In this document: piece after piece, positions 15,421 through 21,688 of the stretch
Numbering within the stretch: the stretch's first letter is position 1
How the letters are laid out: each line of letters begins with the position of its first letter
Assembly (NCBI RefSeq): GCF_003334305.1
Contig: NZ_QOWS01000005.1
Direction: 5' to 3' (one strand)
Source: Escherichia coli
GTDB lineage: Bacteria > Pseudomonadota > Gammaproteobacteria > Enterobacterales > Enterobacteriaceae
DNA length: 64,000 bases
Notes under the pieces: model-generated
Databases searched by the model: none
Seen by the model: the letters and a program-made list of their open reading frames with translations, nothing else
What the model was told of the DNA's origin: nothing
Made by a program: the position numbers and the translations under genes

Positions 15421-15460
15421 CGCACAGAATGTGATGTCAGCACTCTGTGCGTCTGCTTTT
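15421..15460 (+). terminator. Terminator of eamA; also the left boundary of the accessory island
   Basis: Stem CGCACAGA / TCTGTGCG with 15-nt loop followed by TCTGCTTTTAT; overlaps the stop codon of the convergent regulator pseudogene. Confidence 0.5.
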
Positions 15461-16157
15461 ATCGCGGGAAAAAGTACTTTACCTGGAACTCGAAAATATT
15501 GCTGTAAAGTAACGAATAATCCAGCGGAATAGAGTTACTGTCCACAGCCTGGGTCTGAATTTTAAGTATGGGATCCCGTGGGCTGATCCGTAAAATACTG
15601 GCGATTTCTGGGGTAGGAAAAGTAGGGGAGAAAGTTTCAAAGGTGCCAATGATTTTGATCCCGCATTCATTCTCAATATATGAAAATTTGGATTTTTGCA
15701 TATGTGACACGGTTAAATCAGGAAAACGTGCTACTGACATCCACCTTTCTTCTAATTGTGCTGCATTATCCTCAATGAATCGCAGTCTCTTTATGTAATA
15801 AACCTGCTCACCAGTCACTAAATTCAGCTCAGTCGCAATAGTGGGTGAAGCATCCTGCACTTCAAATTTCATAATCTGACTCCCTGCCTCTTTGCCGCTT
15901 TAATGCGCAATTTCACTGAAACTGTTCATGTGATCAATGTGTGCAACAAAATTCTTTTTTTGAATGTATGTTCCTGAACCATGCTTTCTGTGAATAATTC
16001 CTTCGCCTTCCAGCAAGGATAATGCCTTACGCAGGGTATTACGCGAAACATTATAACGAACAGCGAGTTCCGCTTCTGACGGCAACAAATCACCAACATG
16101 CCATGAATTGCCATTGATTTCGGATTTAAGTAAGCGGGCAATCTTTTGAAAAATCAC
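15459..16157 (-). pseudogene. GntR/HutC-family regulator (HTH + UTRA effector domain) interrupted by an in-frame TAA
   Basis: ORFs 15900..16157 (GntR-type HTH: SEAELAVRYNVSRNTLRKALSLLEGEGII) and 15459..15872 (UTRA-like C-terminal domain) are in the same frame, separated by a TAA at 15900-15902; read-through would give a roughly 232-aa HutC-type regulator. Confidence 0.7.
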
Positions 16158-16355
16158 TTTTGCACCTTTTAAGAGCCATTGAAAACAAGGAGTTGAGTCC
16201 TGATTGGTTTATCGTATGGCCGAGTCGTTTAATAATCACCCTGATGTTGAACAACTTTATCACTGTATTACTGTGATCAATGTACCAGGACGTATAGCTA
16301 CTGCGGGATATGATATTTAAACAATGTAATCTGTTATATACCAGTAAGGGAAAAT

Positions 16356-16667
16356 ATGAAAAAAATATTGTTAGTTTGCGCTGCGGGCATGTCAACCAGT
16401 ATGCTGGTTAAACGTATGATTGATCATGCTAACGCTATTTCACTTGAAGTTAATATTTCCGCATTGGCGATTGCAGAGGCTAAAGGGAAAATTAAAAATA
16501 ACGAAGTTGACGTTGTTTTACTTGGCCCGCAAGTTCGCTTTCAGAAACCAGAGATTGAAGCCGTTGCACAGGGGAAAATGCCTGTAGCCGTTATCGAGAT
16601 GAAAGACTACGGCACCATGAACGGACAGGCAGTTCTTGAATTTGCGATGAAACTACTGCAAGAGTAA
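16356..16667 (+). CDS. PTS lactose/cellobiose-family EIIB component (103 aa)
   Basis: ORF 16356..16667; conserved phosphorylation-site motif LVCAAGMSTSMLV; resembles ChbB/CelA-type IIB. Confidence 0.8.
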   Translation: MKKILLVCAAGMSTSMLVKRMIDHANAISLEVNISALAIAEAKGKIKNNEVDVVLLGPQVRFQKPEIEAVAQGKMPVAVIEMKDYGTMNGQAVLEFAMKLLQE

Positions 16668-16781
16668 GAATCTAATATTATTAAACTATTACCTGAACTA
16701 ACTTTTCACACATCATAAAATGGATATGGCATACATGCTTTATTGGGATGTATAAATATCCAAAACAACAGGTATAAAAAA

Positions 16782-18498: not shown

Positions 18499-20172
18499 AT
18501 GAATATAAAGACGCTTAACGTCAGCCTTTTGTCTTTTTCTATTATTACAGCATTGTTTCCATTGAACGCGATGGCAACAAAATTAACCATAGAGCAGCGC
18601 CTTGAATTGCTTGAAAATGAATTGTCGCAAAATAAACAAGAGCTGAAAGCAACACAGAATGAACTGGGAGTATATAAATCCCGACTTTCGACCTTACAAA
18701 AAAGCATCACGGAAAACAAATATAAATCAGCCTCGCTTGCTGAAATATCAGCGACATCTCCCGTCGCTGATAACATCAAAAATGAAAACGGTGAACAGAA
18801 CTCGTTTACCGCAGCGCATACTATAAATGGATCGCAGCAAGTTGCCGTTATTGAAAGTAAAGGCGACAAAACCACTATCGAAAGCGTGACCCTGAAAGAT
18901 ATCAGTAAATATATAAAGGATGATATTGGGTTCAGCTATCAGGGGTACTTCCGCTCAGGCTGGGGTACTGGTAATCACGGCTCACCACAAACTTATGCAG
19001 CGGGTTCTCTGGGACGTTTTGGTAATGAGATGAGCGGTTGGTTTGACCTGACCTTAAATCAGCGTGTTTATAATCAGGACGGTAAAACGGCAAATGCGGT
19101 CGTTACCTATGATGGCAACGTGGGTGAGCAGTATAACGATGCCTGGTTTGGTGACAGTGCCAATGAAAATATCATGCAGTTCAGCGATATTTACCTGACA
19201 ACGCGAGGTTTTTTACCCTTCGCACCAGAGGCAGACTTCTGGGTCGGCAAACATAAACTCCCGCAATATGAGATCCAGATGCTGGACTGGAAAACCTTAA
19301 CCACGGATGTCGCCGCGGGTGTGGGGATTGAAAACTGGGCACTTGGTGTAGGGCTGTTTGATATGTCCTTAAGCCGTGATGATGTCGATGTTTACTCTCG
19401 TGATTTTTCGCGTACCAGCCAGATGAATACCAATTCTGTGGATGTTCGTTATCGCAATATCCCGTTATGGGATGATGCGACATTATCATTAATGGCTAAA
19501 TATTCCGCACCTAATAAAACGGATCAACAACAAGATAACGAAAATGACAACAGTTATTTTGAAATGAAAGATAGCTGGATGCTGACTTCTGTTTTACGGC
19601 AAAACCTGCAACGCGATACGTTTAATGAATTTACGTTACAGGTTGCCAATAATTCCTATGCCAGCAGTTTTGCCAGTTTCTCAGATGCCAGTAATACGAT
19701 GGCGCATGGTCGCTATTACTATGGTGATCATACCAATGGGATCGCCTGGCGTTTAATCTCTCAGGGCGAGATGTATCTTACTGACAATATTATTATGGCT
19801 AACGCGCTTGTCTATTCTCACGGCGAAGATGTTTATAGTTATGAAAGTGGTGCTCATAGTGATTTTGACAGTATTCGCACTGTAATAAGACCGGCCTGGA
19901 TCTGGAATACATGGAATCAGACGGGGCTTGAATTAGGCTGGTTTAAGCAACAGAACAAAACTCAGCAGGGTGTAACACTAAATGAATCGGCTTATAAAAC
20001 GACACTCTGGCATGCATTGAAAGTGGGTGAAAGCATTTTAGGTTCACGACCAGAAATTCGCTTCTATGGAACGTATATCAATATTCTGGATAACGAATTA
20101 TCGAATTTTAAGTTTAATGAGAACAGCAAAGACGAGTTTATGGCCGGCATCCAGGCGGAAGTCTGGTGGTAA
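18499..20172 (+). CDS. LamB/ScrY-family carbohydrate-specific outer-membrane porin with N-terminal coiled-coil extension (557 aa)
   Basis: Signal peptide ([26 protein letters not shown]), about 60 aa of heptad-like coiled coil ([39 protein letters not shown]), aromatic-rich beta-barrel body, C-terminal ...EVWW as in LamB/ScrY porins. Confidence 0.7.
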
Positions 20173-20196
20173 TCTATTTTAGTTAAGGAGTTGTGT

Positions 20197-21636
20197 ATGT
20201 CAGGATTTAAAAAAGGTTTTTTATGGGGCGGTGCGGTAGCCGCGCATCAGTTGGAAGGTGGCTGGAATGAAGGAGGAAAAGGCATCAGCATCGCTGATGT
20301 GATGACTGCTGGCGCTCACGGGGTGCCGCGTGAAGTGACAGAAGGCGTTATCGACGGGCTTAATTATCCCAATCATGAAGCAATTGATTTTTATCATCGC
20401 TATAAAACAGATATTCAGTTATTTGCCGAGATGGGATTCAAATGCTTTCGAACTTCCATTGCCTGGACACGAATCTTTCCGCAAGGTGACGAACAGGAGC
20501 CGAATGAAGAGGGTTTACAATTTTATGATGATCTGTTCGATGAATGCCTTAAGCAGGGAATGGAACCTGTGGTGACGCTTTCACATTTTGAGATGCCTTA
20601 TCATCTGGTGACAAAATATGGTGGCTGGCGAAACCGTAAACTGATCGACTTTTTTATCCGCTTCGCATCAACGGTCTTCACGCGCTATAAAGAAAAAGTA
20701 AAGTACTGGATGACGTTTAACGAAATCAATAATCAGGTGAATTTCAGCGAAAGCCTGTGTCCATTTACTAATTCCGGTATCTTGTATTCGCCAGAGGAAG
20801 ATATCAATGAGCGCGAACAAATAATGTACCAGGCGGTACATTACGAGTTAGTTGCCAGTGCCCTGGCGGTACAGACTGGAAAATCGATCAATCCTGAATT
20901 TAACATTGGCTGTATGATCGCCATGTGTCCCATCTATCCTCTGACGTGTGCACCCAACGATATGATGATGGCCACGAAAGCAATGCATCGTCGTTACTGG
21001 TTTACTGATGTTCATGCTCGTGGATATTATCCGCAACATATGCTGAATTACTTTGCCAGTAAAGGATTCAACCTCGATATCACACCAGAAGATAACGCGA
21101 TTCTTGCCAGTGGTTGTGTCGACTTTATCGGCTTTAGCTACTACATGTCTTTTACGACACAATTTTCGCCCGATAACCCGCAACTGGATTATGTTGAACC
21201 ACGAGATTTGGTCAGCAACCCTTATATCGATACATCCGAATGGGGATGGCAAATTGATCCGGCAGGGCTACGTTATTCACTCAACTGGTTCTGGGATCAT
21301 TTCCAGTTGCCGCTGTTTATTGTCGAAAATGGATTTGGTGCGGTTGACCAGAGACAAGCTGACGGCACGGTGAACGATCACTATCGCATTGATTACTTTG
21401 CTTCCCATATTCGGGAAATGAAAAAAGCCGTAGTTGAAGATGGTGTTGACTTAATTGGCTACACCCCGTGGGGCTGCATTGACCTGGTTTCTGCCGGAAC
21501 AGGGGAAATGAAAAAGCGCTACGGAATGATTTATGTCGATAAAGACAACGAAGGGAAGGGAACGCTGGAACGGATACGTAAAGCGTCGTTTTACTGGTAT
21601 CGGGATCTCATCGCCAACAATGGCGAAAATATTTGA
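20197..21636 (+). CDS. Glycoside hydrolase family 1 6-phospho-beta-glucosidase (480 aa)
   Basis: ORF 20191..21636; GH1 catalytic motifs TFNEIN (acid/base) and IVENG (nucleophile); AAGGAG 6 nt upstream of ATG 20197. Confidence 0.85.
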
Positions 21637-21660
21637 GACTTGAGGAAGATATTACGGAGA

Positions 21661-21688
21661 TGTCAGGCTCTGTGATCAGAGCCTGACA
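21661..21688. terminator. Strong hairpin between the island glucosidase and convergent marB (right island boundary)
   Basis: 12-bp perfect stem TGTCAGGCTCTG / CAGAGCCTGACA with 4-nt loop; no strong U-tract on either side. Confidence 0.45.

Follow-up and report, generated by a model that had tools for sequence, protein, structure and literature searches.

A probable bgc beta-glucoside operon between eamA and marB of Escherichia coli: an old, unevenly distributed locus with a broken regulator in one lineage

What is a block of sugar-utilization genes doing between two genes that are neighbors in Escherichia coli K-12, and for how long has it been there? The question is raised by a 64,000-nucleotide stretch of an E. 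coli genome (NCBI RefSeq assembly GCF_003334305.1, contig NZ_QOWS01000005.1; hereafter the window), in which a gene cluster for the use of a beta-glycoside lies between eamA and marB. An earlier reading of the sequence, the original prediction, had described this cluster as an island. We hold it to be highly probable that the cluster is an old bgc beta-glucoside phosphotransferase system (PTS) locus that is kept by purifying selection, is absent from about half of E. coli and has a broken regulator in this strain. The bgc locus is already known and has been characterized experimentally since 2009; what is added here is its prevalence of 46% in 5426 complete genomes, evidence of its antiquity and of purifying selection on it, the rarity and domain position of the regulator stop allele (K86*), and a conserved stem-loop between bgcI and bgcH.

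The gap between the two core genes measures 6278 bp from stop codon to stop codon (15415-21692), compared with 30 bp at the K-12 counterpart; the last base of the eamA stop codon is 15414 and the marB stop codon starts at 21693. Feature coordinates were taken from the open reading frame (ORF) listing of the window and from the RefSeq annotation of strain H15, whose sequence matches the window at 100% identity across the 12.5 kb compared, and the two sources agree. Six genes are annotated in the gap, where five to six had been expected. The bgcR pseudogene (15459-16157, minus strand) is separated by a divergent regulatory region of 198 bp and 36% GC (16158-16355) from five structural genes on the plus strand, namely bgcE (16356-16667), bgcF (16782-18104), bgcI (18132-18443), bgcH (18499-20172), and bgcA (20197-21636). 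The borders that had been proposed, 15433-21688, were right to within about 20 bp, the real junctions being 15415 and 21692.

The identity of the system rests on the families of these products. BgcF, the IIC permease (440 amino acids, with the start given by RefSeq), scores 335.4 bits on the NCBIfam lactose/cellobiose IIC model TIGR00410, for which the cut-off is 236. BgcE (IIB; TIGR00853/NF007796) and BgcI (IIA; NF007768/TIGR00823) match both lactose/cellobiose and chitobiose models of the same collection at scores below the specific equivalog cut-offs, and therefore the models assign no substrate specificity to the PTS. BgcE has a single cysteine, Cys8, within CAAGMSTS (a C-x-AGMSTS motif), and BgcI has an HAQDH motif at residue 76. 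An IIC above its cut-off, a separate IIB with an N-terminal cysteine and an IIA with its histidine motif place the three proteins in the lactose/cellobiose (Lac/Chb) PTS family. BgcA reaches 1034 bits on the NCBIfam model of the 6-phospho-beta-glucosidase subfamily, NF007154 (cut-off 624), carries both catalytic glutamate motifs, NEI at residue 175 (acid/base, NEx) and ENG at residue 377 (nucleophile), and aligns end to end with solved 6-phospho-beta-glucosidases (803 bits for PDB 3PN8/4F66 and 679 bits for E. coli BglA, 2XHY). Its loop at residue 432 is presumably the phosphate-binding loop, of the S..K.Y type, known from structures of glycoside hydrolase family 1 (GH1). Subfamily model, catalytic motifs and this loop together identify BgcA as a GH1 6-phospho-beta-glucosidase.

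The outer-membrane component and the regulator are equally recognizable. BgcH begins with a signal-peptide-like N terminus, continues with a coiled-coil extension and ends in a LamB barrel, which is the architecture of ScrY/BglH-type sugar porins; it matches the Pfam domains LamB (PF02264, 2.2e-81, residues 147-557) and Sugarporin_N (PF11471, 3.9e-7, residues 30-56) as well as the model NF006860. A single-sequence phmmer search of BgcH against PDB gave no match, even at E = 10, so its likeness to ScrY and LamB is drawn solely from the Pfam and NCBIfam profiles. The intact allele of BgcR consists of a GntR winged helix-turn-helix (wHTH, PF00392, residues 3-64) and a UTRA domain (PF07702, residues 86-217), the combination of the HutC subfamily. 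The profile searches thus bore out the original prediction of a lactose/cellobiose-type IIB, IIC, and IIA, a LamB/ScrY-family porin and a GH1 6-phospho-beta-glucosidase. A broken, divergent HutC-type regulator had also been proposed, and the family, the orientation and the internal stop all hold, although the break belongs to a rare allele and not to the locus as such.

By gene content, regulator type and distribution, the segment is very probably the E. coli bgc operon (bgcR / bgcEFIHA), which the title of its 2009 description calls prevalent in septicemic and uropathogenic strains (Neelakanta, Sankar & Schnetz, Appl Environ Microbiol 2009;75:2284). The operon has been described as having five structural genes, including those for IIB, IIC, IIA and a phospho-beta-glucosidase, together with a GntR-type regulator, BgcR, that is reported to be an activator, and bgc mutants grow on cellobiose, arbutin, and salicin (PMC3585215). 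Along with chb, asc, and bgl it is counted among the four cryptic beta-glucoside operons of E. coli (PMC4488073). In a further source, a six-gene cluster of strain CFT073, c1955-c1960, appears as "PTS system, cellobiose specific"; it is apparently missing from K-12 and O157 but found in HS and several B1 strains (PMC2831201), a pattern compatible with the distribution found here. CFT073, a uropathogenic strain of group B2, has an intact copy of the segment at exactly the eamA-marB site. We take bgc to be this c1955-c1960 cluster. The 2009 work is also said to include the porin BgcH as the fifth gene, to give the order IIB-IIC-IIA-porin-glucosidase, to find expression CRP-dependent, to report a bgc* point mutation in the promoter by which expression no longer needs BgcR, and to describe growth of bgc* mutants on cellobiose, arbutin, and salicin at 28 C. 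The segment therefore shares with the published operon its species, its gene set, its GntR-type regulator, and its presence in CFT073 but not K-12. It differs in the rare K86* change of the window bgcR and in a prevalence far wider than in the 2009 picture, according to which bgc was reportedly prevalent in group B2 and rare in commensals.

Based on the protein families and the published description, a mechanism can be proposed. A beta-glucoside (cellobiose, arbutin or salicin) would cross the outer membrane through the ScrY/BglH-like porin BgcH and would then be imported by the IIC permease BgcF with phosphorylation at C6, the phosphate being relayed from phosphoenolpyruvate (PEP) through enzyme I (EI) and HPr to the histidine of BgcI and on to Cys8 of BgcE. 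BgcA would split the resulting 6-phospho-beta-glucoside into glucose-6-phosphate and either glucose or the aglycone. Transcription would start from the 198-bp divergent region and would require the HutC-type activator BgcR and, as is reported for bgc, cAMP-CRP.

The substrate is the part of this proposal that is most easily challenged, since another beta-linked sugar, such as chitobiose, lactose or another beta-galactoside, or a mannan or glucomannan disaccharide, might be the main one, with cellobiose and the aryl-beta-glucosides as side activities. The IIA and IIC proteins do also match N,N'-diacetylchitobiose models, below cut-off, and the operon is cryptic on the sugars tested, so that its natural inducer may differ. 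In addition, the closest characterized regulators include GmuR of a glucomannan operon (PMC3585215). Against this, BgcA lies well above the cut-off of the 6-phospho-beta-glucosidase model and below those of the 6-phospho-beta-galactosidase models, and growth of the published mutants was on cellobiose, arbutin, and salicin (PMC3585215). On balance we regard a different main substrate as unlikely. A further point comes from the chitobiose system of E. coli itself, chb (chbBCARFG of K-12), which is a core operon with a GH4 phospho-glycosidase, ChbF, an AraC-type regulator, ChbR, a deacetylase, ChbG, and no porin gene. Both systems have a Lac/Chb PTS with separate IIB, IIC, and IIA proteins and both are cryptic for cellobiose; however, bgc has a GH1 enzyme, a HutC-type regulator and a porin gene, and its PTS proteins do not reach the curated cut-offs set for the Chb equivalog models.

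Other relatives share different parts of the system. The bgl operon (bglGFBH) of E. coli is likewise cryptic and AT-rich and serves aryl-beta-glucosides, with a LamB/ScrY-type porin, BglH, beside its GH1 phospho-beta-glucosidase, but it uses a glucose-family enzyme II (EII), BglF, with fused domains, is controlled by BglG antitermination and is silenced by H-NS, whereas bgc has a Lac/Chb EII and a HutC-type activator. The combination of Lac/Chb PTS, GH1 enzyme and GntR/HutC regulator is found in cellobiose/beta-glucoside PTS clusters of Firmicutes, for example in Streptococcus mutans, in S. pneumoniae (bgu, with BguR) and in Bacillus subtilis (gmu, with GmuR), and BgcA scores higher against the S. 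mutans enzyme 3PN8 than against E. coli BglA. BguR is reported to be similar to BgcR (PMC3585215). Nonetheless, BguR and GmuR are repressors while BgcR is a reported activator, and the Gram-positive clusters have no porin.

How widely the locus is distributed was assessed by megablast, with 15300-21800 as the query and 5426 complete E. coli genomes as the database, and with a carrier defined by a match to at least 80% of the segment. The pan-genome comparison that had been suggested showed a presence/absence polymorphism, with 2495 of the 5426 genomes (46%) as carriers; K-12 and most E. coli are thus not among them. Non-carriers sampled at even intervals along the ranking all matched at the eamA and/or marB ends only. 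The eamA and marB genes are adjacent and convergent in K-12, as the original prediction had it; they are 30 bp apart in MG1655, which lacks the segment, and likewise 30 bp apart in strain T159A and in O145 RM9872. The carriers seen include O111:H8 as well as bovine, poultry, and environmental isolates. Among the 5430 places matched by the 6.5-kb query, five are on plasmids.

Such a patchy distribution could mean that some E. coli lineages recently gained a genomic island at the eamA-marB site by horizontal transfer, and several observations favor this idea. As had been noted for its AT-richness, the segment has a GC content of 42.5% compared with 47.7% elsewhere in the window, the lowest of all 6.3-kb stretches. 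Citrobacter sp. On2M and Salmonella enterica subsp. diarizonae have the same six-gene order elsewhere in the chromosome, and a pattern scan left the block undetected in representative genomes of other Escherichia species. However, no integrase, transposase or tRNA gene was annotated or seen within 15415-21692 in the ORF listing or the H15 annotation, as the original prediction had stated, and comparison of the junctions gave no flanking direct repeats or mobility remnants at the segment borders. Synonymous divergence is also the same in the segment as in the core genes beside it. When the window is compared with the B2-type allele of FDAARGOS_1259, which has the same protein accessions as CFT073 for four of the six genes, the bgc genes differ by 1.6-3.9% and the flanking genes ydeE, eamA, marB, marA, marC, and ydeA by 1.6-3.2%, with dS values of 0.06-0.16 and 0.06-0.12, respectively. 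In E. albertii, bgcR-EFIHA directly adjoins marB-marA-marR, according to a porin scan of one genome per species.

The empty sites are no younger in appearance. Those of the K-12 type and of O145 (L003, 3116-3145; L036, 8982-9011) share the hairpin GCCCCGAnATGnCGGGGC but differ at about 13 of 60 positions, and marB of O145 shares only about 91% identity with its counterpart in the window (21693-21911); this allelic divergence is unusually deep for a core region of E. coli. Because of the flank-like divergence, the shared site in E. albertii and the diverged empty alleles, both the occupied and the empty state must be old, and a recent island appears very unlikely. The bgc locus has long occupied the eamA-marB site under purifying selection, and the polymorphism more likely reflects loss or recombinational replacement in about half of the species than recent gain. 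The word island is a misleading label for a locus that has diverged together with its flanks, occupies the same site in E. albertii and shows neither mobility genes, tRNA nor border repeats. Further away, in Cedecea, Buttiauxella, Ewingella, and several Enterobacter/Klebsiella isolates, the genes are rearranged, with that of the glucosidase lying beyond that of the regulator; in Kluyvera and Raoultella the glucosidase was not found within the fetched flank.

The regulator of the window strain carries a nonsense change, AAA>TAA at codon 86 (K86*; 15900-15902, minus strand), which is seen in the translations and as an "internal stop" in RefSeq and is due to a single-nucleotide polymorphism (SNP) at 15902, where the window has A and intact alleles have T. 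This stop coincides exactly with the transition from the wHTH to the UTRA effector domain, and the product lacks the latter. To count the alleles we used A and T versions of a 55-mer centered on the SNP, in which any 28-base seed is forced to include the SNP, and found K86* in 9 of the 5426 complete genomes and the intact allele in 1989. K86* is thus a rare private allele of a small clade and not a property of the bgc locus. Two further changes separate the window from its three closest relatives, T138R in BgcR, past the stop (15745, minus strand), and R288S in BgcA (21060, plus strand). All three private changes in the 6.5 kb are non-synonymous, with no private synonymous change, and they fit relaxed constraint after loss of the activator, on small numbers.

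Because K86* removes the effector domain of the reported activator, the bgc operon is probably not inducible in the window strain. The five structural genes and the promoter region are intact and of wild type, while of BgcR just the 85-residue DNA-binding domain is left, and switching the operon on would need a promoter-up mutation of the bgc* type. The regulatory region (16158-16355) is identical in the window and in the closest relatives with an intact bgcR, and there is therefore no compensating promoter mutation. The K86* clade may offer a natural bgcR knockout in which to study why E. coli retains "cryptic" beta-glucoside systems. A decaying, functionless remnant on its way to loss throughout E. 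coli is a most improbable description of the locus as a whole: its crypticity under laboratory conditions (PMC4488073), its absence from 54% of genomes, its pseudogenes (bgcR in the window and the porin in FDAARGOS_1259) and the exclusively non-synonymous private changes speak for it, but dN/dS is 0.014-0.08 within E. coli, like that of eamA and marA, and 0.02-0.08 against E. albertii (a marR value being an artefact of an indel offset and disregarded), all six genes are intact in 9 of the 11 carriers inspected, and with the stop allele limited to nine genomes decay fits the window lineage and not the species. The two exceptions among the 11 are the window strain and FDAARGOS_1259, a B2-type strain with an internal stop in bgcH (L002, 6199-7872) and with the regulator and remaining genes intact, which is an independent inactivation of another component.

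The divergent region offers some clues as to how the intact operon may be controlled. In an alignment of the orthologous spacers of 13 genera, the distance between bgcR and bgcE is about 190-200 bp throughout, and TGTGAnC at 16272-16278 is invariant in 13/13. Together with TACCA six bases downstream it completes a CRP-like site, TGTGATCAATGTACCA (16272-16287), with 8/10 consensus positions, and the invariant TGTGA half-site agrees with the CRP requirement that has reportedly been found for bgc. The hexamer TATGAT at 16309-16314 (plus strand), noticed on direct reading of the sequence, is a candidate -10 element that would put the center of the CRP-like site near -41.5, in a class II arrangement. 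A scan with a generic promoter consensus did not list this hexamer because no acceptable -35 is present, as is expected for an activator-dependent promoter; the scan gave about as many hits as shuffled sequence would (17 found, 16.8 expected) and was given no weight. Three candidates were considered for a BgcR operator: two near-palindromes, CTGTTATATACCAG (16329-16342) and CACTGTATTACTGTG, of which the second overlaps the CRP half-site, and a GTTCA..TGAAC repeat of other genera. None is conserved in all genera, and no operator was assigned for this reason.

Several points weigh against the reading of the segment as a bgc operon that has lost its regulation in this strain. No database source names these proteins "Bgc", exact-sequence look-up giving generic names only, and the identification was made from gene content, regulator type and strain distribution and from the presumed correspondence with CFT073 c1955-c1960. 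The promoter and the CRP site are inferred from conservation and spacing only. As for the regulator, translation restarting at Met96 could supply the UTRA domain on its own, and some DNA binding could persist in the 85-residue wHTH fragment, although complete loss of regulation is likely.

The 55-bp spacer between bgcI and bgcH holds an 11-bp stem-loop, TTTCCTCCAG..CTGGAGGAAA (18447-18474, plus strand), which was detected by a terminator-like scan and by folding five orthologous spacers. It stands at the same place, with a different loop, in E. albertii, Citrobacter sp. On2M and S. enterica subsp. diarizonae, and it may act as a partial terminator or attenuator, or as an mRNA stabilizer, between the PTS genes and the porin and glucosidase genes. 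It is conceivable, though unlikely, that the natural substrate is not one of the laboratory sugars but a plant or microbial beta-glucoside whose uptake is cold- or environment-specific, that the porin-glucosidase half of the operon is expressed apart from the PTS half by way of this stem-loop, and that the wHTH-only BgcR still sits on its operator and locks the promoter in a new state instead of acting as a plain null.

Hairpins are also found at both ends of the segment, each between convergent genes. At the left junction, the inverted repeat CGCACAGA-N15-TCTGTGCG (15421-15451), read directly from the sequence, occupies the 44-bp spacer between eamA and bgcR and is a candidate shared terminator; in empty sites the different hairpin, GCCCCGAnATGnCGGGGC, stands in its place. 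At the right junction, the hairpin GTCAGGCTCTG-TGAT-CAGAGCCTGAC (21662-21687; 11-bp stem, 4-nt loop) lies between bgcA and marB, is kept in the B2-type allele and in E. albertii, and may serve as a bidirectional terminator. We also considered whether a short direct repeat might account for a precise deletion: "GATGTCAG" occurs close to each junction, and the empty site has "GAGATGTC". This mechanism was dropped because the shared stretch is short and the junctions have diverged too far to support it.

On either side of the segment the chromosome continues with core genes. To the left is eamA, for an O-acetylserine/cysteine exporter (14515-15414, plus strand; H15 RefSeq annotation and ORF listing), and to the right is marB (21693-21911, minus strand; annotation), followed by marA, marR, and marC. 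Elsewhere in the window, positions 1 to about 4650 hold a Qin-like prophage remnant (tail fibre, tfaQ, the invertase pinQ, ydfK, and ynfT) that abuts a truncated ydfJ. A 5.4-kb autotransporter gene of the ECSE_1600 family spans about 44312-49731, and the annotation of the identical H15 marks it as frameshifted. Past hipBA, at about 50200-63500, two adjacent integrase genes are accompanied by genes for an HTH protein, an M48 metallopeptidase, the R subunit of a type I restriction system, and two hypothetical proteins, one of 845 amino acids; this block has the look of an integrative element with a defence or restriction module as its cargo.

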